Below, piece by piece: positions 39,991 through 53,683 of a stretch of DNA of 54,509 nucleotides (positions within the stretch are counted from its first letter, which is position 1; each line of letters starts with the position of its first letter). The DNA is taken from positions 1-54,509 of IMG/VR virus record IMGVR_UViG_3300025070_000043; one strand, given 5' to 3'. The position numbers and the translations under genes are program-made. Source of the DNA: a virus (taxonomy: Duplodnaviria; Caudoviricetes). Below the pieces are notes generated by a model. The model was not told where the DNA came from and searched no databases. It was given only the letters and a program-made list of their open reading frames with translations.

Positions 39991-40295
39991 TAATAAAGCC
40001 TATTATGTGTACCAACTGAACCACCACTTTTTTTCTTGACAATTTTTTTCTTTTTCTTTACTGTAGTTTTACGTGGGTCATACATAGGACCTTCTTGTGG
40101 TTTTTTCTTACCCGGATAGTTAGCTCTACCTACAGACATACCTGCTGATTTTTTTACCATTCCTTGAGTATTAAATTGATGTACTGCATCAGCTAATGTA
40201 TCTTTATCTATTCCTTTAGTTGGAAAACTAATACCATTCTTTTTTAAAATAGCCTTTAATTGTGCAGCTGTCATTTTATCATACTTAGTAGCCAT
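39990..40295 (-). CDS. basic protein with C-terminal HNRLY
   Basis: N-terminal HeH/SAP-like MTAAQLKAILKKNGI...KDTL; ends KKSGGSVGTHNRLY. Confidence 0.65.
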   Translation of the reverse strand: MATKYDKMTAAQLKAILKKNGISFPTKGIDKDTLADAVHQFNTQGMVKKSAGMSVGRANYPGKKKPQEGPMYDPRKTTVKKKKKIVKKKSGGSVGTHNRLY

Positions 40296-40657
40296 TATGC
40301 TTTCCTTCCTAGTTTCTTATGCTTTTGAGTTTTTGGTGGGCTTTTCTTGCTCCCACTCTTACCAGCCCAAAGAACTTTATCAGCCCAGTAAGCAGCAGAT
40401 AGTTTACCTTTTTTAATATTCTGAGCATGGCGAGACTTAAATGACTTACGTGCCGTAGAAGAATAGTTATGACCATATCCTTTTTGTCCGAAGTGAATAA
40501 CTCTAACTGTATCTCCCTCTTTAGCAAGAACCATACCTTTCTTTTCTGGACGTGTTGACTTACGAGGTTTATTAAATCCTGCAAATGTTGTACCACGGTA
40601 TTCAATCCTTCCTGATGGTAATCTTTTAACTCCGGGATATTTACTTTTGGTAGTCAT
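40295..40657 (-). CDS. basic conserved viral protein
   Basis: VIHFGQKG, RKSFKSRH, SAAYWADKVLW. Confidence 0.7.
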   Translation of the reverse strand: MTTKSKYPGVKRLPSGRIEYRGTTFAGFNKPRKSTRPEKKGMVLAKEGDTVRVIHFGQKGYGHNYSSTARKSFKSRHAQNIKKGKLSAAYWADKVLWAGKSGSKKSPPKTQKHKKLGRKA

Positions 40658-40917
40658 TACTTTACCTTCCTATACTGTTTGACTTTCTTTGCGACAGTCT
40701 TAGGTTGTTTAACGAACTGCTTTCCCTTTGCTGTTCCTTTTCTTTTAGCTGCCGTAGTCTTAGCATATTCTTTTGCGGATAACGCCTTAATTGCCTTGCT
40801 GGGGAGATAGCGTTCACCTGTAGCCTTTGAACCTTGTGTAGAGGGTTTACCACTCTTGGTTCTCCACTTTTGTTTTGTCCAAGCCTTTAAGCTCCTTTGT
40901 GATTTTTTTAGTGCCAT
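40657..40917 (-). CDS. basic protein, C-terminal half of a DUF5872-like domain
   Basis: QRSLKAWTKQKWRT...ERYLP...KRKG...GKQFV. Confidence 0.65.
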   Translation of the reverse strand: MALKKSQRSLKAWTKQKWRTKSGKPSTQGSKATGERYLPSKAIKALSAKEYAKTTAAKRKGTAKGKQFVKQPKTVAKKVKQYRKVK

Positions 40918-40927
40918 GATAGTTCCT

Positions 40928-40956
40928 ATTATATCATTAAATGTTTATATTTACAA
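40928..40956 (-). promoter_or_regulatory. sigma70-type promoter
   Basis: TTGTAA-17 nt-TATAAT with TG extension, about 10 nt from the ATG at 40917. Confidence 0.65.
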
Positions 40957-41388
40957 TGACTTTAAATAAAAAGCCCACCAAACTAGTACAGCTAAACCAA
41001 ACAAACCTAAGATAATAAAAGTAGATATTAATATTGTTTGTATTAAATCTTCCATTCTTTTTTTTCTTTCTTGTTCTGCAAGCAGTCTTTGCTTTCTTGC
41101 TTGTGCTTGAAACCTAATCCAATCATGCCATAGTCCGGGTCTACCAGTATATATCATTAATTGTTTTAATTCTTCTTCTTGTTGTTTTAACTTTTCAAGA
41201 TGCATAAACTCTTCTAAATCTGCAGAGCCTGTACGTCTTTTCTTTTTATCTGCTTTCTTACGTAAGCTTTCGGTAGCATTAACATACTCACCTACTTTTC
41301 CTGCAACATCTGCAATCTCACGACCATTACTAATAGCCGTTTTAATTACTGCAAATGCAGCATTGGCTGCGGCTATCTCTGCTAACAT
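40951..41388 (-). CDS. C-terminal TM coiled-coil protein
   Basis: MLAEIAAANAAFAVIK...; hydrophobic C-terminus. Confidence 0.65.
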   Translation of the reverse strand: MLAEIAAANAAFAVIKTAISNGREIADVAGKVGEYVNATESLRKKADKKKRRTGSADLEEFMHLEKLKQQEEELKQLMIYTGRPGLWHDWIRFQAQARKQRLLAEQERKKRMEDLIQTILISTFIILGLFGLAVLVWWAFYLKSL

Positions 41389-41391
41389 TTG

Positions 41392-41610
41392 CTACTCCAC
41401 AATCTTTACGATGTAATTTTTTCCATCTGGACCTTTATTTATTTCAACTGTTTTATTTTCACAAGAGTATCTTACTGTTCCTGTATCTTTATATAAATTT
41501 CTTTCAATAGTACGTTTAGCTTTTAAACATTTAGATAGCTTTTCAAAAGCAGTATGCTCTGCTATACTACCAGAAAGATATAGTATTAATGTAATTGTCT
41601 CAGTCACCAT
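41392..41610 (-). CDS. small Cys-pair protein
   Basis: LSKCLKAKR...YSCE. Confidence 0.55.
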   Translation of the reverse strand: MVTETITLILYLSGSIAEHTAFEKLSKCLKAKRTIERNLYKDTGTVRYSCENKTVEINKGPDGKNYIVKIVE

Positions 41611-42001
41611 CTTTTCCGTTTCTCATTATCTCTAGTCTAGCTTCTATTGCACTAATACGTTTCTCATAAAATTCCAATGTTAGTTTCTGTTGCTGGTCAT
41701 GTGGTGCTCTACCTTCATCTATCTGTGTTGTTAGTTCGTCTAGCTGGTCAGAAAGATGTTCAATCAACATAAACTGTTCGCTGTCAGCAGGTAAACTGCC
41801 CATCTCGCCACGAGGCCATTTAATACGAAACTCTGTGTTTTGCTCTAAGTCAGACTCCATCATAGTAATGTTAGTTTCTATCTGGTTAAGTCGTTCTATT
41901 ATACCAAAGTATGCCCATGTTGCCAAGGAAGCTGCAGCAACCATACTTATAATATTACGTAAAGGTAATGCTACCTCAGTGTTTTCACTTATACGTGCCA
42001 T
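41600..42001 (-). CDS. N-terminal TM coiled-coil protein
   Basis: ISENTEVALPLRNII + TM, LPADSEQFML. Confidence 0.65.
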   Translation of the reverse strand: MARISENTEVALPLRNIISMVAAASLATWAYFGIIERLNQIETNITMMESDLEQNTEFRIKWPRGEMGSLPADSEQFMLIEHLSDQLDELTTQIDEGRAPHDQQQKLTLEFYEKRISAIEARLEIMRNGKDGD

Positions 42002-42315
42002 TAATTTTTATAGCCGCCACCTGCTTTTTTGTAAGCAGAAGCTAGCATTTGAGCTTTTCGAGCACTCCACTGACCCGGAGCACCGCCCTTTCCACCTGCT
42101 TTAATACGTTCAAATAATCTCTTACGCATAGTAGGTTTAGTATAATTACCTGCTTTGTTTACTGTAGACTTAGGTTTACCACCAGAGGCTAAAGCCCTTA
42201 CACTTTTTCTAGTGTAAGAGCCTTTTCCTTTTTTAGGTTTTACTACCTTTGGTTGATATAATCTATTAGCTAAAGACTTAGCTACAGGATTACGAGACTT
42301 AATAGGTTTTTTCAT
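42001..42315 (-). CDS. ArfA-like N-terminal module fused to DUF5872-like N-half
   Basis: NPVAKSL...KKGKGSYTRK, then YTKPTMR...GGKGGAPGQWSARKAQML...GGGY. Confidence 0.6.
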   Translation of the reverse strand: MKKPIKSRNPVAKSLANRLYQPKVVKPKKGKGSYTRKSVRALASGGKPKSTVNKAGNYTKPTMRKRLFERIKAGGKGGAPGQWSARKAQMLASAYKKAGGGYKN

Positions 42316-42329
42316 TTACCTGCCCCTTT

Positions 42330-43337
42330 TTATTTTTTAGGTCTACGTGCTGCTCCAAAACCTTTTACTTGACGTGCAGCCCCAGATTTAATTGAACCAC
42401 CACCTTTATATTTAGAAGCAAGATTAGGACTTATTCTTTTTTGTACACTTTCTGGTAACTTAGAAAATCCTTTATACTTAGAAGGTGGAGTTTTCTTTGA
42501 CTTTGGTTTTGTTTTAGGCATAGGCATTTTTTCAAGTGTAGGGTTACCACCCTTTTTCTTTTTAACAGTACCAGTCAAAAGACTTTTAGCTTGCTTGGTT
42601 GTCATACCCTTTGGAATTTCATAGGTAGATTTTTTACCATCGACAGTAATACTCACAAGCTTTTGTGTCTTTGAGTTATAACCACCATCAAACTTTTTAG
42701 GCATAATCATTTTACCCGGAGTAGCTTTAATTTGATTACCCCGTGGGTCTACACCCTCAGAAGGTTTAGCAAACTTACGACCCGGACCACCCTCTTTAGT
42801 TTTAGGACGTGGTTTAGGTCCAGTAACTGCACCAGATTTCTTTTGTCCTTTATTACCAAATAATGCTCCTAATGTTATAGCAGTAGTTGCGCCACCTATT
42901 CTAGCTGCTCTTCCCCGAGTCATAGGCTTTGTACTCTTCTTAGGAGGCTGTGTAGTAATTTTAGTACGTGGTTTAGCCGCAGATGCACTTGGCTTAGATG
43001 CAGCTACACTAGGTTTTACAACTCTAGGTTTAGGCTTCATTGAAGGACTAGGCTTAGATAGTTTAACAGTTTGTCCACCCATGTCAGACAAAGCACTTCT
43101 TTGTTGAGAAGTTACACCAGACTTAGGTTTAACAACTTTAGTTGAAGGTCTTAAAGTAGACCTACCCTTAGATTTAATTTGATTTACATTAGTAATTGTT
43201 GAAGGATTTTTATTAATCCTATCTGCTGTAACTTTATTTACAGGTTTAGCTCCTTTTTGGGTAAGAAACTTTTTAATATACGGAGATGTTGCTTTATAAA
43301 TTTCACCCCCTAATTTAAATAGTGTTGATGCTGCCAT
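42330..43337 (-). CDS. Lys/Pro-rich basic low-complexity protein
   Basis: 335 aa; ends YKGGGSI...GFGAARRPKK. Confidence 0.65.
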   Translation of the reverse strand: MAASTLFKLGGEIYKATSPYIKKFLTQKGAKPVNKVTADRINKNPSTITNVNQIKSKGRSTLRPSTKVVKPKSGVTSQQRSALSDMGGQTVKLSKPSPSMKPKPRVVKPSVAASKPSASAAKPRTKITTQPPKKSTKPMTRGRAARIGGATTAITLGALFGNKGQKKSGAVTGPKPRPKTKEGGPGRKFAKPSEGVDPRGNQIKATPGKMIMPKKFDGGYNSKTQKLVSITVDGKKSTYEIPKGMTTKQAKSLLTGTVKKKKGGNPTLEKMPMPKTKPKSKKTPPSKYKGFSKLPESVQKRISPNLASKYKGGGSIKSGAARQVKGFGAARRPKK

Positions 43338-43348
43338 TGTTTTACTCC

Positions 43349-43561
43349 TTAATATAATCTATTGTGGCCTGACTGTATAGTTTTCTTTTTAGCTTTAGAA
43401 ACCTTACCGCCTTTTTTCATACCACCTAATTTAACACCCATTTCAACAAGGTCTGCTATATCCATAATACCTGCAGGACTTGCTCCGTATAAGGCCATTC
43501 CTTTTTCAACTATGCCACGAACCTTACCTTTTTTCTTTGTTTTATTCTTGTTACCAAACAT
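43349..43561 (-). CDS. basic protein with C-terminal HNRLY
   Basis: Ends MKKGGKVSKAKKKTIQSGHNRLY. Confidence 0.65.
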   Translation of the reverse strand: MFGNKNKTKKKGKVRGIVEKGMALYGASPAGIMDIADLVEMGVKLGGMKKGGKVSKAKKKTIQSGHNRLY

Positions 43562-44667
43562 TATTTCATAGCCTTTCCATAACCACGTAATGCTTTACCA
43601 CAACCACGAGGTCCTTTAGATTTAATTTGTTTACCTGATTTATACATACCTACTTTACCACCTGCTTTTCTACCTACAGATGTATTAGCTACACTATACG
43701 TATCTGGTTTGCCAGTACCAAAAGACTTCATAATGTCATCAAAAGATTTTTTATCAAACCCTCTTTCTCTTTGAGTCTTAAAAGGATAACCTTGATTCTT
43801 AGCAGTCTTCATTCGTTGAATGATGGATGCTCTAGCTTTCTTTTGTTTAGCTGTTTTAGGCTTATACATAATATCGGCTAGTTGAGAATTTGTATAACCT
43901 CGTGCAAACTGTTTACGAATAAACTCTAGCTTTTCACCTTTAGACATAGATTGGTAAGCTTTACGTTTTATTTCACTAGCTTCTTTACCTGTTTTACCTT
44001 TAGTGTCTATACCGCCACCTTTTGCTGGTAAAGTTTCATTTGCACCTTCATATAGGTATTTATTTTTCTTTGTGCCAGTAGGACCAGACTCAGCAATAAT
44101 TGTATCAATACCGCCTTTTTGTTTAATAACACGTTCTCCTTCAGGAGTAAGTGAAAGAGTACGTGAAGAAACAACAGTTTTAGTTTTACCTTCATTTTTC
44201 ATTTCTTTTAGTTTTTGAGAAATAAGGTTTTTACGTTCTTTCATTTGCTCTTCAGACAAGCCAGAAAGAAGTCCTTTACGTTTCATTCTTGCAGTATCTT
44301 TTCTTGCCATAGACATAACTTTTTGTATTTTAGTTTTACCACTAGCTTGAGCTTTAGTAACTGCTTCTGCAGCAGTAAGTTTACCTTTACTATCTTCTAG
44401 TATCTTAATAGCTAATGTTTTTGTAGAACCATCAATATCTTTACTACGAATAGTCTGTGACTTACGTTCAATTGCACGTTCTTGAACAAGGGAAGCTTTA
44501 GAAGTTCCTGCTTTTTCTGCAGCTTCTGTTTGCTTTGCTTGGTATGTCTTTTGACGTGCAGCAGATTGTGCTTTACGTTTACCTTTTGTTTTTCGCTTAT
44601 CTACCTTTGGCCTTCCTTTTTTCTTTGCCAAAGACTTTGCTGCAACTTTAAGTGCTTTACTAATCAT
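43561..44667 (-). CDS. Lys-rich basic protein
   Basis: 368 aa; ends KAGGKV...RGCGKALRGYGKAMK. Confidence 0.65.
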   Translation of the reverse strand: MISKALKVAAKSLAKKKGRPKVDKRKTKGKRKAQSAARQKTYQAKQTEAAEKAGTSKASLVQERAIERKSQTIRSKDIDGSTKTLAIKILEDSKGKLTAAEAVTKAQASGKTKIQKVMSMARKDTARMKRKGLLSGLSEEQMKERKNLISQKLKEMKNEGKTKTVVSSRTLSLTPEGERVIKQKGGIDTIIAESGPTGTKKNKYLYEGANETLPAKGGGIDTKGKTGKEASEIKRKAYQSMSKGEKLEFIRKQFARGYTNSQLADIMYKPKTAKQKKARASIIQRMKTAKNQGYPFKTQRERGFDKKSFDDIMKSFGTGKPDTYSVANTSVGRKAGGKVGMYKSGKQIKSKGPRGCGKALRGYGKAMK

Positions 44668-45323
44668 TAGTTACTCCCTGCTATAACTGGATTATCTGCA
44701 CCTGCTTTGCTTGCAGGAGTTTGCATATCATCCCGTCTTGTTCTACGTGCTTGATTTTGTAAGGTTGCTACGGCTTGCATATATCTTTGCTCAAAAAGAT
44801 TAGATGCATTATAATCTTTTTGGAATATCATTGCCTCTACCATACTAGCATTAAATAAAGCATCATAACAAAAATCTGAAAAATAGTTGTTAGGTGCTGC
44901 TGCTGCTAAAGTAGTAGGTCTAGATATATGTACTATCTCTCCATTGAATGTAGAAACAGGAGTAGGTGCAATGAGGACCGTTGTATTGTTTCTACGTGCA
45001 TAATATTCAGGAGTGCCTGTACTTGCTGATACAGGCCAGTAATCACGTATATATTCATCGGTTCTAGGCAACAAATTAATTCGTGTTGAGTTAGCAATTA
45101 TATTAAAGTTTTTTAATATTCTTGTTCCTGATGGAAGGGTAACTTGATTAATACCTAAAGGAATTGCAACAGAAGTATAGGATACTAGCCCGTAATCATC
45201 AAGGTCACGAGTTAGTCTTTCTTCTGCACGATTAATCATTTTAGGAATATAGTTAGCAAACTCTGTTCCATCATTCTCTGCAGCTTGAGTAATATCGTCT
45301 ACAAGATAAGAATAATTAGCCAT
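44667..45323 (-). CDS. head completion/adaptor protein
   Basis: AEERLTRDL, GTPEYYA, APTP, YDALFNASMVEA. Confidence 0.6.
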   Translation of the reverse strand: MANYSYLVDDITQAAENDGTEFANYIPKMINRAEERLTRDLDDYGLVSYTSVAIPLGINQVTLPSGTRILKNFNIIANSTRINLLPRTDEYIRDYWPVSASTGTPEYYARRNNTTVLIAPTPVSTFNGEIVHISRPTTLAAAAPNNYFSDFCYDALFNASMVEAMIFQKDYNASNLFEQRYMQAVATLQNQARRTRRDDMQTPASKAGADNPVIAGSN

Positions 45324-45621: not shown

Positions 45622-45680
45622 AGAATTTCTCCGATTATTGTTAATTAGTTAATTGTTATTCTATTTATTATATTATACAC

Positions 45681-45728
45681 AAAAAAAGAGGGATATGAAA
45701 TACCCCTCTTCTCTTTTTTATTTTTTTA
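45681..45728. terminator. intrinsic terminator after the major capsid gene, likely bidirectional
   Basis: AAGAGGGATAT-GAA-ATACCCCTCTT stem with an A-tract on one side and T-tracts on the other. Confidence 0.7.
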
Positions 45729-45740
45729 AGTTTTTCAGTA

Positions 45741-46679
45741 CTAGCCTGAAGAACCGTAATAACTACGCCAGTCTGAGAAACCAAAGCTATAACGCTCACG
45801 AGCTTTAAAGCGAAGGTTACCAGTGTCGAAATCCGGTTCCATCTTTGTCTGCAGAGGAGCACGTACAAACATCTTTGCACCATTAGGACAATCTGTCTTA
45901 ATGAACCAAGCATCTGTATCTGTGAAACGTCTGTTGACATAGAAGCCACCCGGAATCAAACCTTGATTACGGATTGAGTTAATGTCATTAACATTTGTTG
46001 CACCGTTAGCTGCAGTTGTTGGGTTTACGCCAATAGTGGTTGACATCTGACTGTTCAAAATTTGGTCAGCAGTGAATGCCAAATCTGATGGGACGTGCAA
46101 AGACTTAGCTTGCAGACCAATCAAGATACCACGATCATCTTTTGCTTTTGAAATCTGAATAAGAGCAGACTCAAGAGCAGCTTCTGACAAGTCAGTAGCA
46201 CCAAAAGTGTTTGACTGATTACCAGCAGACATCGTTGGATGTGATGCTGAGAAAAATGGTTGACCATCACCACCTGCAAAGGCAGTGTTGAAACCGTTGT
46301 TAAATACATCAGCAGCTTTAACCTGCTTAGTATTAGCCATTGCACGGGCTAGACCACGAGCACGAAGCTTGGAGAAGGTATCATAAAGATTATCTTCCAT
46401 TGCTTCTTCTGTTACGGCAAATGCCAATGCAACAGTTTCGTGTGTATAACGTGCTGTGTAGCTTTCTTGTGCATCATCATAAGTAACCGCAGCACCTTCA
46501 CCTTTAGTAGGTGCAGTACCGAAGCCTGTGAATAGCACTTCTTCTTCGAATGCACGGTCTGAGTTTTCAGTCTCAAACAATGGTGCGTGTTCGTCTGCTA
46601 CTTCCCCATACTCCATACCGAATACGGCATTAAGACCGGGGAGAAGCTCTTTTGCAATACTTGCTCTATTAATAGCCAT
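45741..46679 (-). CDS. major capsid protein
   Basis: MAINRASIAKELLPGLNAVFG, SDRAFEEE, ITEEA-like VTEEAMEDNLY, DFDTGNLRFKARERYSFG. Confidence 0.85.
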   Translation of the reverse strand: MAINRASIAKELLPGLNAVFGMEYGEVADEHAPLFETENSDRAFEEEVLFTGFGTAPTKGEGAAVTYDDAQESYTARYTHETVALAFAVTEEAMEDNLYDTFSKLRARGLARAMANTKQVKAADVFNNGFNTAFAGGDGQPFFSASHPTMSAGNQSNTFGATDLSEAALESALIQISKAKDDRGILIGLQAKSLHVPSDLAFTADQILNSQMSTTIGVNPTTAANGATNVNDINSIRNQGLIPGGFYVNRRFTDTDAWFIKTDCPNGAKMFVRAPLQTKMEPDFDTGNLRFKARERYSFGFSDWRSYYGSSG

Positions 46680-49387: not shown

Positions 49388-49575
49388 TCCTCATCGTCTT
49401 CATACATTACTTTGTTTACCATATTTTTAACTTCTGCTCTGGCCCACTCCAATCCTGAAATGCGACCTACAGAGTTCATATACGTATGATAATCCGAAGC
49501 TGCTCCTGATGCAAGCGAATTTTTTACTAATTCAATTTCTCTATGTAATAATTTATCTATTTCTTCTATAAGCAT
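49384..49575 (-). CDS. conserved small head-module protein
   Basis: LASG..DYHTY...VGRISGL between portal and GroES. Confidence 0.6.
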   Translation of the reverse strand: MLIEEIDKLLHREIELVKNSLASGAASDYHTYMNSVGRISGLEWARAEVKNMVNKVMYEDDEE

Positions 49576-52073
49576 TATTTATTCTTTGTGCCTGAAATCA
49601 TTTTACTAATAACATCAATTGCTTTAGCAGCTTCTGAGCTTTCAAGATTGTCTTCATGCTTTACCATATCTGCAAGAAGTTCTACTGCCTTAATAGCTGC
49701 TTTGGCATTTCTGTCTTTTTCTTTCTCGTCAGCCTTGAGTGTACCCTCTGCACCAATCTTATATGCGTCAAGTGCCAGCTTCTGTTCTTTCAAGTCAAGG
49801 TCACGGTTCTTCAAAGCACCTTCACTTGCTTCTTTAGCAAGTTGTGCCTGTACCTTTTCTTGTTCAATACTAAGTCTTTGTGCTTCCATCTGAACCATTG
49901 CTTGTTCAGGTGATGGACCTCTTTGTGCTGCAGCTTGATTAGCTTGCATTACCTGCTGTGCAGCTGCCATCATTACCTGTTCAATAACTTGTGGGTTCTG
50001 AGCATTAGGGTCACCTTGTGGTGCTTGTGCCATCATTTGACGTGTTAAACCATTAATCTGCTCTTCATACTTCATTACTACGTGTTCTTGTATGTTAGCT
50101 TGTAGAATAGGAACTACACGTTGCATAATTGGGTTGGCACCATTAGCAGGGTCTTGCATAAACATAGTTTTAATTTGAATATGTGCATCATGATTTTGTC
50201 CTGCAAATGCTTTAATAGGAAGACCTTTAGTTGCTGCTTCAATGTCTGTTACAGGGTCAAGAGCTTGTGCCTCTGGCTTTTGTGGAAGTATCCTGTCTAA
50301 GTTAGGAATGTTTGCCGCATTAAGAAGTGTGCGGTTTAGTTCTTCCATATTAAACATACCGGGTGGTGATTGCTGTGCTTGCTGCATAACCATCTGTGCC
50401 ATCATCAACCTGTGGGCAGACGAAGGAATATTAGGGTCAGATACAGGAAGTACATCAACACGACCATCAAAGTCACGTTTAAAAATTGTTTCACTTACAC
50501 CGGGAACATCATAAGGATATTTAGCAGGTAAACTTTCATAGTTAATACGTGCAAGAATTTTAAACTCATCCCGTTGTGATTTATGTAATCGTTTATGAAT
50601 TGCACTAAAGAACTTACTAGAAGCCTCAAGCAATGCCATAGTTGTACCTACAGGACCATAGTTAGAACCTTCTGTAATAACTTGCTCTGTAGTATCAGCA
50701 AACTTTTGACCTGCTCCTGAGACAAACTGAAGCATTTGGAATAATGTGCCTGATGGTTCTTTATAAGGCAAAGGTACAATTGAACGAGACAAGTCCATAC
50801 CTGTTGCTTCTACTTCTTTAAACTCACCCGGAGCAATAGGGTCATTGTCTCCTACAATGCGAACACCTTTTGCTTTAAAGCCACCGGGCAAGTTAGCAAA
50901 CTGTCCTGCATCAATAAGGTTACGCATAGCTGCAGTGGCAGACATTGTAAGGTTACCAAGGAAGTGAATAAGACCAAGACCATAGAAACCAAATCCCGGA
51001 ACAAAACGATAATGAGTAAAGAACATTTTCTTTTCTTTATTTTTATCTTCTTCATTCCAGTTTCTACGAATAGACAGTACTTTACGTGTTGTTTCTTCAA
51101 TAGTTACAATGTAAGGACATTCATAACCATGACCTTCAATATCAAGATAACAGTGCTGTTCAAGAAGAACATACTGCATATCTGTATCGGAAGAAGGAGA
51201 CAAACCAAGTACTGTGTCCATTTTTTGTGTTAGGTCTGATTGTTCTGGGATATATGCATCAGGTAGTTCTACTTCTGCATACATACCTGAGTACATTGCG
51301 TTTGCAATCTCACGAGGGCTGCGATATAGAACATGAGTATACCTATCAGCCCGTCTTAGGTCTGTGGCATAGTAAGATACATAGAACTGGTCAATAGGAA
51401 CAAACTCACTAACAGGACGCTCTACTGAACCATCATAATAAATCTTTTTAAATGAACTACCAATTAATGGTAAATGAAACAACATACGCTCAAACTCATC
51501 GAAGTATTCTGGCATCTTATCAGTCAACTGATAGTTCATAAAGTTTTGAACACGATTTGCTTGTTGTTGTTTTTCAACCGATACATCACCAAGAACTTGA
51601 GCTTTAACTGGGCCACTGGAAGGAAATAGTTCTTGGGATGCACGGCTCTGGAATTTAACCGCAGACTCTATGAGTAGTGGATGTACAGCAGTTGCTGCAC
51701 CTTCAAAAGGTTCTGTAGTTTCTTCCAGTTTCAAACCAAGCAGGTCAAAGCCTCGTTCAAACATGGATTCCCATTCTGCCCGTGACTCTTTATCTGCTTC
51801 GTATTTTTCGTAAACTTCTTCACCGATACTAATAAGTTCGTCTTCTTCTATTTGCTCGGCAAGGTTAGAATAAAATTCGTCTTCAATATTAAAATCTACA
51901 ATATTGTCTATATCTTGTAAATCCATTTCTGGCATAAACTCTACTTCTAGTTCGCCTGTTTCTGAATCTACTTCAAAATTTACATTTGGAAAATCTTCTT
52001 CGTTTTGTTCAATATTTAATTGAATAACATTTTCTTTACCAATAGGGTCATTAGGATTTTTTTCAATAGCCAT
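49575..52073 (-). CDS. portal protein
   Basis: 832 aa after TerL; HPLLIES, LPLIGSSFKKIYY, YGLGL, Gln-rich C-terminal coiled coil. Confidence 0.85.
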   Translation of the reverse strand: MAIEKNPNDPIGKENVIQLNIEQNEEDFPNVNFEVDSETGELEVEFMPEMDLQDIDNIVDFNIEDEFYSNLAEQIEEDELISIGEEVYEKYEADKESRAEWESMFERGFDLLGLKLEETTEPFEGAATAVHPLLIESAVKFQSRASQELFPSSGPVKAQVLGDVSVEKQQQANRVQNFMNYQLTDKMPEYFDEFERMLFHLPLIGSSFKKIYYDGSVERPVSEFVPIDQFYVSYYATDLRRADRYTHVLYRSPREIANAMYSGMYAEVELPDAYIPEQSDLTQKMDTVLGLSPSSDTDMQYVLLEQHCYLDIEGHGYECPYIVTIEETTRKVLSIRRNWNEEDKNKEKKMFFTHYRFVPGFGFYGLGLIHFLGNLTMSATAAMRNLIDAGQFANLPGGFKAKGVRIVGDNDPIAPGEFKEVEATGMDLSRSIVPLPYKEPSGTLFQMLQFVSGAGQKFADTTEQVITEGSNYGPVGTTMALLEASSKFFSAIHKRLHKSQRDEFKILARINYESLPAKYPYDVPGVSETIFKRDFDGRVDVLPVSDPNIPSSAHRLMMAQMVMQQAQQSPPGMFNMEELNRTLLNAANIPNLDRILPQKPEAQALDPVTDIEAATKGLPIKAFAGQNHDAHIQIKTMFMQDPANGANPIMQRVVPILQANIQEHVVMKYEEQINGLTRQMMAQAPQGDPNAQNPQVIEQVMMAAAQQVMQANQAAAQRGPSPEQAMVQMEAQRLSIEQEKVQAQLAKEASEGALKNRDLDLKEQKLALDAYKIGAEGTLKADEKEKDRNAKAAIKAVELLADMVKHEDNLESSEAAKAIDVISKMISGTKNK

Positions 52074-52108: not shown

Positions 52109-52137
52109 ATTATATACTTATGTTCTCCAATATGCAA
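52109..52137 (-). promoter_or_regulatory. sigma70-type promoter for portal
   Basis: TTGCAT-17 nt-TATAAT. Confidence 0.65.
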
Positions 52138-53683
52138 CCCTTCTTTTTGTTCTTGGGCTATCTTCCCATTCCGGGTCTTCTGGATGTATTAAGTTCCAAC
52201 TGTCCTTCATATAATGAATTGCCATTGTCATACAATCTACCTGATCATCGTGTGAACCTGCAGGAAAAGACATACATTCAGCAAACAAATCGTCTGACCA
52301 TGTTTTGTCTTTTGGTATCCATACACGACCTGCTTCCATCAAAGGAGTAGAAGCATAGACACGAGCAACCTTATCTCTATCTGGAAGATAGTCTAATACA
52401 GGAAGACCTGCTCTTCTCATGTCCTGAATAAGAGACTGACCAGAAGCTTTCTTTTCTATTATACATACATCTGGTTTATATTGTGCATATACTTCTTGTG
52501 CTTTACGTCTTAGTTCTGGATATTCAAATCTACCTCTTATATTACCTAATAGTATTAAGTTAGAAGTTATTTGTTCTGTTCCATATTCATCTTCTTCATA
52601 TGACCTAAATATTCCCCATGTTTGTATTACACTATAGTCAGCAGTACGTGCAGTACTAAAAGCAGTATCATATGTCTGTATTATAAAGTCACATGGTGGA
52701 GGCTCATCATCATCCCACCAACTTATCCATTTCTTTTTAATAATACCACCATCATCAGGTGATGGGTCTTGCATATATAAAGAGTTCCAGTATCTACTAC
52801 CATTAGAACTTCTAATCTCCATCTCATCTATCTTTAATAGCTCGTCTGGTTTCCATTCAGGAAAGTAAGAAGAACCTTCTGGTAAGTCAAGAAGCTCTGC
52901 TGCTTCTTCATTAAGCCACGCAGGTATACTAATTACTTCCCAAGGGTTTGGCGTTTCTTCTGCGTTCTGTTCTTGCTTTAACAGCCAACCACACAAATCG
53001 TCATAGTGATATCTTGTATTAATAATAATGATTGCACCATTAGGCATAATACGAGTACGTAGACCTGCAGGATACCATTCCTTAATATAACGTCTACCTG
53101 CTTCACTGAAGCTGTCTTCTTCAGACATAACATCATCTAGTAATGCTACGTGAGCACCTCGACCCGCAACCTGACTTCTTACACCTGCTGCATAATAAGA
53201 CCCGTTTTTATTTGTCTTCCATTTACCTGCTGCCTTCACATCACTTCTAAGAGACACACCACGGAATATCTTTTGAAACCTGTCTGTGTTTACAATGTCT
53301 CGTACAGTTCTACCAAAGTCACTTGCAAGCTGGTCACTGTGTGAGACAGACATAATCTCATGGTGACCAAAGTTACCAATGTACCACGCAGGAAATAGTT
53401 TACTACATATTACTGACTTAGAAGAACGGGGTGGTAAGAATACCATAAGTCTTTTTGTACTACCATCTAACACACCCTGTAGCTTTTCACATAGTAGTTC
53501 TATGTGTCTTCCCATCTTAAAGTCAGAAACAATGGTAGGAGCAAATATCTTTACAAAGGTAAGGAAGTCATCCTTTGCCTTTATGTTTGCATAGTGATGC
53601 ATCTTTTCTCTTAGGTCCAGAAATAGAGTTACATTGTGTATTTCTTCTGGTGTTCTATTTTCATCTACTTCTAAATCTAACAT
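52118..53683 (-). CDS. terL: terminase large subunit
   Basis: Walker A PPRSSKS, Walker B ALLDD, TRYHYDDL, YDTAF, IEKKASG, HDDQVD. Confidence 0.95.
   Translation of the reverse strand: MLDLEVDENRTPEEIHNVTLFLDLREKMHHYANIKAKDDFLTFVKIFAPTIVSDFKMGRHIELLCEKLQGVLDGSTKRLMVFLPPRSSKSVICSKLFPAWYIGNFGHHEIMSVSHSDQLASDFGRTVRDIVNTDRFQKIFRGVSLRSDVKAAGKWKTNKNGSYYAAGVRSQVAGRGAHVALLDDVMSEEDSFSEAGRRYIKEWYPAGLRTRIMPNGAIIIINTRYHYDDLCGWLLKQEQNAEETPNPWEVISIPAWLNEEAAELLDLPEGSSYFPEWKPDELLKIDEMEIRSSNGSRYWNSLYMQDPSPDDGGIIKKKWISWWDDDEPPPCDFIIQTYDTAFSTARTADYSVIQTWGIFRSYEEDEYGTEQITSNLILLGNIRGRFEYPELRRKAQEVYAQYKPDVCIIEKKASGQSLIQDMRRAGLPVLDYLPDRDKVARVYASTPLMEAGRVWIPKDKTWSDDLFAECMSFPAGSHDDQVDCMTMAIHYMKDSWNLIHPEDPEWEDSPRTKRRVAYWRT

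Follow-up and report, generated by a model that had tools for sequence, protein, structure and literature searches.

Does a marine phage carry a working ribosome rescue factor? The question is raised by a single ATG-initiated open reading frame (ORF) of 104 amino acids (aa) on the minus strand (42001..42315, stop codon at 42001-42003) of the virus record IMGVR_UViG_3300025070_000043. The window analysed here is the whole of this near-complete record, 54,509 bases in length (CheckV completeness 98, 38% G+C). An initial annotation had read in this ORF a peptide resembling the ribosome rescue factor ArfA, fused through a Gly-rich linker to a second basic domain and located among structural genes. 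The peptide is indeed present, as residues 5-37, which are exactly IKSRNPVAKSLANRLYQPKVVKPKKGKGSYTRK (42205-42315 spans residues 1-37), and the ORF listing and full-length homologues with PF03889 agree on a fusion of an ArfA-like module, a Gly-rich linker and a two-helix C-terminal domain (C-domain). Judged by profile comparison, the ORF encodes a genuine ArfA-family module of the type found in SAR11 bacteria, in a podovirus resembling pelagiphages.

The module and its likeness to ArfA

A Pfam search of the protein returned PF03889 (ArfA) with an E-value of 2.9e-8; at 33.5 bits the match exceeds the gathering cut-off (25.5), and it places residues 16-38 on positions 19-41 of the 44-position profile; the same match was recovered at 33.6 bits when the record was searched in six frames. 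Compared as a single sequence (phmmer) with 177,635 distinct Protein Data Bank (PDB) sequences, the module gave six matches, all of them ArfA, at a borderline E of ~0.045. A profile was built from the module and 51 short relatives (52 sequences) taken from an exhaustive search of 1.84 billion representatives, and it matched the same six ArfA sequences only, at E 1.5e-10 to 4.1e-10. When this profile was aligned by hhalign with E. coli ArfA (K-12 record), the probability was 97.1% and the E-value 6e-11 over 39 columns, K6-S44 lying on I11-G49. The ArfA likeness put forward by the initial annotation is thus borne out by the Pfam search, and the profile comparisons point to ArfA alone.

Across 40 aligned full-length homologues, L15, P27, K28, K29, G30, K31, G32, Y34, R36 and K37 are invariant, and N9, P10, A12, K13, P22 and K26 are at least 90% conserved. 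The conserved positions that are neither Lys nor Gly (N9, P10, A12, L15, Y20, P22 and Y34) align with ArfA. Codons beneath the conserved residues differ synonymously (R36, for example, is AGA, CGT or CGC); the module is under purifying selection, with synonymous codon change. The short relatives form a graded series, from bacterial-type forms with Lys-His (KH) motifs and hydrophobic tails to the phage forms. The initial annotation had allowed that its likeness might prove to be nothing beyond low-complexity Lys/Gly bias; a match above a curated cut-off and conserved positions of other residues were found instead. Because the Pfam, PDB-profile and hhalign results and these positions agree, a chance low-complexity resemblance is excluded as far as sequence statistics allow.

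In E. coli ArfA, the C-terminal part occupies the vacant mRNA entry channel, release factor 2 (RF2) is docked by F25 together with the beta-strand Q27-E30, and a short helix of residues 15-24 sits at the decoding centre; the first 14 residues take on order together with the RF2 switch loop, the A18T change blocks activation, and a Lys-His motif, common to ArfA and BrfA, lies in a channel pocket (PMC8012679). The window module proper, residues 9-38 (NPVAKSLANRLYQPKVVKPKKGKGSYTRKS; 42202..42291, minus strand), has a short helix, an aromatic residue with a beta-strand, and a KKGKGSY.RK channel-probe motif, as delimited by Pfam, the PDB profile, hhalign, the invariant columns and a predicted helix. 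K28-K37 (KKGKGSYTRK) align with ArfA K33-K42 in hhalign and phmmer alike and are predicted to occupy the channel; the KPKKGKGSYTRK stretch, whose E. coli counterpart lies in the empty 30S mRNA entry channel, is kept. In the hhalign register Y20 aligns with F25, P22-K23-V24-V25 with Q27-E30 and the helix N9-L19 with N14-L24. Family-wide, Y, F or L (in some K) stands at position 20 and [IV][IV] at 24-25, a pattern suggestive of RF2 docking. The AlphaFold2 (AF2) model of the whole protein is poor (mean pLDDT 65, pTM 0.36) and places a helix at residues 10-15. A predicted complex of residues 1-46 with Caulobacter RF2 (RF2_CAUVC) scored 0.28 against a mark of 0.32, was run without controls and is not used as evidence.

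Relatives in SAR11 chromosomes and in other phages

The capsid gene of the window is 67-69% identical in DNA to those of the pelagiphages HTVC023P and HTVC027P, and because of this resemblance SAR11 is the likely host. One of these phages, HTVC027P, has a related protein, gp30, which is named ArfA in PMC12753301 and is reported there to be expressed at 3 hours post infection and again at 12-15 hours. It matches PF03889 and has the core NPVAK...IIKPKKGRGSF like that of the window; unlike the window protein it is a 58-aa stand-alone form with another N-terminal stretch, has no C-domain and no in-ORF hairpin, and adjoins the small terminase gene (terS).

Relatives were also found in the chromosomes of SAR11 itself. 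When one genome per prokaryote species was scanned with the 48-aa module, 159 relatives were confirmed, of which the best 80 were kept. All 80 (loci L165-L244, among them L198:2968-3117 and L242:3001-3120, both plus strand) have an ORF with the motif (78 distinct products). The record titles of 79 read Pelagibacter, Pelagibacteraceae or Pelagibacterales, and the isolates HIMB1611, HIMB058 and HIMB1420 are among them; the remaining one, L207, is from another alphaproteobacterium. The SAR11 ORFs, here called mini-ArfA, are unannotated, 34-40 aa long and 50-64% identical to window residues 5-43. They share with the window protein the core N[PF].AK.L...Y.P+[IV]VKPKKGKGS[FY].RK, a K at the A18-equivalent position and the absence of an N-terminal arm; they differ from it in ending 3-6 residues past RK with an ordinary stop, in having mostly GSF rather than GSY, and in lacking the C-domain and a strong hairpin. 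In two isolates the locus consists of a Trans_reg_C regulator, mini-ArfA and convergent PfkB and HhH-GPD genes, and the two products stand above the Pfam cut-off at 28.3 and 27.5 bits; in these isolates it is a cellular, conserved chromosomal locus. PF03889 was found in 79 of 121 sampled Pelagibacteraceae genomes (58 above cut-off), many of which are incomplete, and in 8 of 301 sampled genomes of the class, three of the eight being the same SAR11 genomes. Two PCRF release factors (RF1/RF2), SmpB and RNase III are present in 3/3 SAR11 isolates. A survey of 15,259 genomes reports arfA in 0 of 2,376 Alphaproteobacteria (PMC11633108, Table 1), and among papers in the literature searched that name both 'ArfA' and 'Pelagibacter' none is, by its title and the start of its abstract, about a SAR11 gene. 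By sequence, the nearest cellular relatives of the phage module are the SAR11 mini-ArfA genes.

The family of the window gene is marine and very large: among proteins at large, a word-seeded search of 5.8 billion sequences gave at least 8,000 candidate homologues; the best 120 of these all carry a precomputed PF03889 label, and many are named 'stalled ribosome alternative rescue factor ArfA' by the Joint Genome Institute (JGI). The exhaustive search of representatives yielded 74 clusters (50% identity) at E ≤1e-3, mostly proteins of 33-66 aa. The 80 viral loci fetched with the module, 79 of which carry the motif, encode 49 distinct ORF products: 15 are at most 48 aa long and end just past the motif (one, L112, is cut by the end of its locus), and 34 measure 91-258 aa. 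The longer forms are built like beads on a string, with optional N-terminal modules, the ArfA-like module, a variable linker that takes inserted modules, and the C-domain, the borders being marked by S/K-G-G; one optional N-terminal module is Pfam DUF6496 by its precomputed label (PF20106). The module thus appears to be a mobile, independent unit in marine phages, occurring alone (~33-48 aa) or strung with small basic modules via Gly-Gly linkers. A search of cultured phages with the 48-aa module by tblastn gave no match, probably owing to the low-complexity filter. A protein of 1235 aa (P0124) with seven 'stretches' was rejected as a relative; by eye, it is a chance repeat match.

The second basic domain of the initial annotation is equally real. 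The C-domain, residues 53-104 (NKAGNYTKP...GGAPGQWSARKAQ...GGGYKN; 42004..42159, minus strand), matches phrog_17747 at E 1.7e-33 (residues 47-103 on positions 7-63 of 63), and AF2 predicts in it helices at 61-73 and 85-97 (pLDDT ~70-79) joined by the Gly-rich loop GGKGGAPGQW. It is encoded in 584 viral stretches, and in the best 80 of these it stands mostly alone or after unrelated N-terminal modules, L003 alone among them also having the ArfA motif. It gave tblastn matches in 17 cultured marine phage records, including gene 63 of HMO-2011, which has a different N-terminus, and it recurs in 461 longer proteins, one of them named 'phage gp16-like' by JGI. An Atlas search returned unnamed viral clusters only; DUF5872, on 25% of one cluster at 0.88, is a lead only, and the Pfam search of the window protein has no DUF5872 match. 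From its distribution, the C-domain is a separate, shuffled phage module with no assigned function.

The hairpin in the message

The end of the module coincides with a hairpin in the message (42186..42229, minus strand; core stem 42191-42224). It consists of a 14-bp stem with a 3-bp extension, spans codons K29/G30 to S44, its loop falling on those of R36-K37, and has a folding energy of -23.5 kcal/mol. It overlies the G-K-G-S-Y-T-R-K codons and the beginning of the linker (residues 39-52, VRALASGGKPKSTV; 42160..42201, minus strand), whose first codons form its 3' arm and which in the homologue alignment is the point where extra modules are inserted. When the sequence was resampled synonymously (same peptide, window codon usage), 6 of 2,000 resamples folded as well (mean -10.0, standard deviation 3.6). 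Thirty-one single hairpins on the minus strand of the window reach -17 kcal/mol and one is stronger than that of the module; this strongest one (-25.2 kcal/mol; 46596-46647, minus strand) lies inside the major head protein gene.

Homologues have the same feature. In 21 of 26 distinct fused genes the site falls in the 5% tail or lower of the gene's own resamples (mean z -3.11), against 4/26 (mean z -0.70) when a site within the C-domain of these genes serves as control. For the 14 sequences that share one register, 86.1% of 266 cells are paired, compared with 34-54% with slid partners; in 6 of the 19 pairs both partners have changed (columns 24/49, for instance, hold C-G, A-U and U-A), and the covariation score, computed regardless of kinship, is 0.263 versus 0.177 in shuffles (0/500 reach it) and at most 0.115 in slid controls. 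RNAalifold yields the same stem, and other sublineages have different stems at the same spot. In the covarying pairs, third positions of the conserved G-K-G-S-Y-T codons, where the changes are synonymous, face the first codon positions of residues 38-44, so the 'variable' linker is partly dictated by RNA pairing. Because G-U pairs occur often and, in 12 of the 14, the sense strand folds more stably than the antisense, the feature belongs to the RNA level. The hairpin is selected beyond peptide and codon usage, with compensatory changes.

Hairpins inside the reading frame are known in rescue factor genes. That of arfA is cut by RNase III in E. coli, and in Neisseria transcription terminates before the stop codon; stop-less mRNA is thus the template for the protein, and trans-translation keeps its level low (PMC8012679; PMC8327144). 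In brfA a terminator lies within the ORF (PMC8012679). With less confidence than for the module itself, the phage hairpin could likewise give rise, by cleavage or early termination, to stop-less transcripts from which only a peptide of ~41-44 aa, the size of the host mini-ArfA, would be made; the yield of this peptide would follow the trans-translation load, and an uncut message would give the full fusion. That the hairpin yields a stop-less message for a host-sized mini-ArfA is a tentative proposal, which we judge somewhat unlikely. Several observations weigh against it. At a fixed 60-nucleotide (nt) window, 5 of the 26 fused genes lie outside the tail, their best hairpins being a few to 39 nt away, and the covariation counts, which come from 14 sequences, ignore their kinship. 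The stem has no U-run and is not terminator-like. E. coli arfA, folded in the same way, has its stem at ~nt 154-197 (codons 52-66), with the motif at codons 34-42; the phage stem is 12-20 codons nearer the motif and overlaps it, so that cleavage within the stem would take away part of the motif. Of 18 stand-alone phage genes, ten have no such hairpin and eight have one, either within the ORF or reaching across the stop; L137 belongs to the eight. The SAR11 chromosomal genes have no strong hairpin: one of the best 80 loci reaches -15 kcal/mol or lower, namely L207, which is not SAR11. Finally, the full-length protein is certainly made, because the C-domain is conserved in frame.

Two other roles were considered for the hairpin and rejected. 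An intrinsic terminator is ruled out by the absence of a T-run. As to a -1 frameshift at the A-run before the hairpin, the A-run is off the register of a slippery heptamer, the -1 frame ends after six codons (by eye) and is not conserved in L092, and L100 and L113, which lack the A-run, weaken the idea further.

Related structures were seen elsewhere. A stand-alone viral ArfA-like gene (L137:3067-3141, plus strand) has a GC stem and U-run in the ORF before the stop and a hydrophobic tail (…KRLFYWFLI), which is the arfA/brfA arrangement. L207 (3001-3140, plus strand), a metagenome-assembled genome of a non-SAR11 alphaproteobacterium, has a 46-aa ArfA-like ORF with a Lys-His motif and a GC hairpin of -27 kcal/mol in the ORF. 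In SAR11 loci such as L173, L167 and L174 (motif -9..+111 nt), a pairing of ~-10 kcal/mol joins the G-K-G codons (GGCAAGGG) with CUUGCC just past the stop; this weak pairing matches the strong phage hairpin in topology and may be the forerunner of it.

Function, rival explanations and setting

We consider that the ORF encodes a working ArfA-family rescue factor with a probability of about 0.5. During infection the module would bind host 70S ribosomes stalled at the 3' ends of truncated messages and recruit host RF2; the peptide would be released and the ribosomes returned to phage protein synthesis. The Gly-rich linker and the basic, two-helix C-domain would sit outside the channel entrance. 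A number of points count against rescue activity. K13 sits at the position of ArfA A18, and K or R is at least 90% conserved there in the 40 homologues. The stretch before NPVAK (N9) is not conserved and is replaced by other whole modules in many homologues, so that the ArfA part comes to lie inside proteins made of several modules and up to 416 aa long; in the window protein only eight residues precede the helix, and an ordered arm like ArfA 1-14 is missing. The Lys-His motif is likewise absent (RKSVRAL stands in its place), and KH occurs in some short relatives (P0125, P0153, P0175). An NCBIfam search of the window protein returned no family at E up to 1. With a mini-ArfA already encoded by the host lineage, it is also not obvious what the phage would gain. 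The lysine at the A18 position and the missing arm weigh less against ArfA behaviour, because both are common to the SAR11 chromosomal form; as far as the alignments tell, the K at the A18-equivalent and the near-absent N-terminal arm are traits of the subfamily.

Some of these points leave room for a module that binds ribosomes without rescuing them, plugging the vacant mRNA channel with no RF2 activation. Such a binder could be a competitor of transfer-messenger RNA (tmRNA)-SmpB, of ArfB or of the mini-ArfA of the host; it could also keep ribosomes parked or marked, or simply anchor the C-domain or adjacent modules on the 30S subunit. The channel probe P27-K37 is the best-conserved part, K or R stands at the A18-equivalent position, neither a conserved N-terminal arm nor a KH motif is found, and the module can be internal in proteins of up to 416 aa; pelagiphage infection has moreover been reported to leave ribosome-deprived cells (PMC11066056), making ribosome manipulation plausible. 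However, the RF2-docking aromatic and beta-strand are as well conserved as the probe, the host chromosomal version, presumably a working factor, has the same traits, and the stand-alone phage forms are of the size of the host protein. Pure binding is the less probable account, though one to be taken seriously.

The position of the gene raises a further alternative. The large terminase (52118-53683), portal (49575-52073), major head protein (45741-46679) and a virion structural protein (44667-45323) lie on the minus strand in this order. Right after the major head protein gene, folding places an intrinsic terminator with a GC stem and U-run (45674-45725, minus strand; -19.5 kcal/mol), so the downstream late genes, including the ArfA fusion, would be read by read-through or from another promoter. 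After the virion structural protein come three Lys-rich ORFs (368, 70 and 335 aa) that match no family, and then the ArfA fusion, preceded by a putative Shine-Dalgarno-like AAGGGG 7-12 nt 5' of its ATG (42322..42328, minus strand; read from the sequence); its stop overlaps the ATG of the next ORF (TAATG). Two ORFs with a membrane-spanning hydrophobic stretch (by eye), small basic ORFs and then large structural or tail-fibre genes follow. The gene sits in the late, structural-gene strand, as the initial annotation had it, and its position fits a late gene among structural genes.

Accordingly positioned, the fusion might be virion cargo: a small, very basic, modular late-operon protein packaged with the DNA for charge neutralisation or ejection, which would be compatible with a working ArfA. 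The ArfA-like peptide could then be a nucleic-acid binder only, or be delivered at injection, and the Gly-Gly junctions may be protease sites. For this speak the location between the head genes and the tail or large structural genes on the late strand, the Lys-rich neighbours without known families, the match of the ORF at 40295-40657 to phrog_220 ('minor head protein and DNA pilot'), the joining of the C-domain to many N-terminal modules, with the 461 longer proteins including the 'phage gp16-like' one, and the S/K-G-G marks at module borders. On the other hand, our literature search found no virion proteome for such phages; the stand-alone form of HTVC027P, next to the small terminase gene, is also expressed early (PMC12753301); the C-domain gene of HMO-2011 lies near an auxiliary metabolic gene and a lysozyme gene rather than core structural genes; and plain DNA binding leaves the precise conservation of the RF2-docking residues unexplained. 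We give virion cargo about the same low probability as the pure binder.

A more elaborate possibility is that this one gene gives two products by way of its hairpin: from stop-less message a host-sized mini-ArfA, a self-tuning switch borrowed from SAR11 that would accumulate only when trans-translation is saturated by the RNA wreckage of infection, and from intact message a capsid-bound fusion, injected with the DNA, which would act on ribosomes before phage gene expression. The full fusion would be routed to the capsid via its C-domain, a domain common to hundreds of bead-like basic proteins. We think this improbable. Lastly, a chance likeness of a Lys/Gly-rich stretch to ArfA, for which one could cite the single-sequence PDB match of only E ~0.045, the large share of the score supplied by KKGKGSY.RK and the empty NCBIfam result, is highly implausible given a Pfam score above the gathering cut-off, a profile match to ArfA alone in the PDB (1.5e-10), 97.1% hhalign probability over 39 columns, the alignment of the non-basic N9, P10, A12, L15, Y20, P22 and Y34 with ArfA, and the graded series from bacterial-type to phage forms.

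Some observations concern the surroundings of the gene. The Lys-rich ORFs of 335 and 368 aa (42330-43337 and 43561-44667, minus strand) have no Pfam or PHROG family and end in similar Gly/Arg-rich tails (…VKGFGAARRPKK; …GCGKALRGYGKAMK). Two small basic ORFs of 120 and 86 aa (40295-40917, minus strand) match phrog_7595/phrog_220 and phrog_14910, and look like free-standing copies of modules that are elsewhere fused to the C-domain, as in P0298, where PF19846 follows it. The whole 40295-44667 stretch encodes Lys/Gly-rich modular proteins. The window has no Rfam family and, by ARAGORN, no tRNA or tmRNA. Words of the window were sought in sequencing runs and found in 24 runs, searched as contigs, which cannot show RNA ends; one was an RNA run, with 0.05 of the words.

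Compared with known systems, the window module is by profile tests of the same family as E. coli ArfA (YhdL; PF03889; PDB 5MGP, 5MDV, 5U4I, 5H5U, 7OJ0), and both have the KKGKGSY.RK motif, the RF2-docking aromatic and beta-strand, the short helix before them and an in-ORF hairpin. The window protein differs in being phage-borne and a 104-aa fusion, whereas E. coli ArfA is a stand-alone protein of 72 aa (55 active); it has no 13-residue N-terminal arm and no KH motif, has K for A18, and bears a conserved C-domain, predicted to be folded, in place of the hydrophobic C-terminal tail. Its hairpin lies on codons ~30-44, over the motif, that of E. coli arfA on codons ~52-66. BrfA of B. subtilis and ArfT of Francisella are, like ArfA, small basic channel-probing peptides that recruit a release factor (PMC8012679), ArfT also using RF1; ArfT-like helices occur in arrays of 1-8 repeats (PMC6514570), a parallel to the beads-on-string forms described here. 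BrfA and ArfT were absent from the matches of the window module in the PDB searches (phmmer and profile), and no sequence relation to them was detected.

The usual view of ArfA is of a back-up factor with a narrow distribution, in beta- and gammaproteobacteria; SAR11 are the most abundant marine bacteria. The ArfA family is found here in two new places, as a 34-40-aa gene in SAR11 chromosomes and, alone or fused, in many of their phages; it follows that the family is wider, and its minimal functional core smaller, than thought. Phage 'ArfA' was already named, though uncharacterised: in HTVC027P (PMC12753301), in g10 of Citromicrobium phage RXM (PMC8953757), a PF03889 protein like gp30, and in automatic JGI and NCBI names, and in the portions available neither paper treats the mechanism, a fusion or mRNA structure. 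A literature search, with most subscription journals outside its coverage, found no paper that deals with the architecture of the fusion, with the hairpin and its conservation or with the chromosomal gene of SAR11. Beyond the initial annotation go the conserved in-message hairpin, the SAR11 mini-ArfA genes and the C-domain as a separate shuffled module.

The covarying hairpin provides a directly testable case in which a control element of the arfA type would be put to new use within a fusion gene. The finding is relevant, too, to conflicts over phage defence in which non-stop ribosomes are involved: ArfA rises in infected cells defended by DRT2 (PMC11100668). A phage-borne rescue factor would also bear on how pelagiphages sustain translation during the decay of host RNA and ribosomes; for these phages, 'zombie' cells in which ribosomes are no longer detectable have been reported (PMC11066056). 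Read in this way, the module suggests that phages may tend the stalled ribosomes of their hosts.

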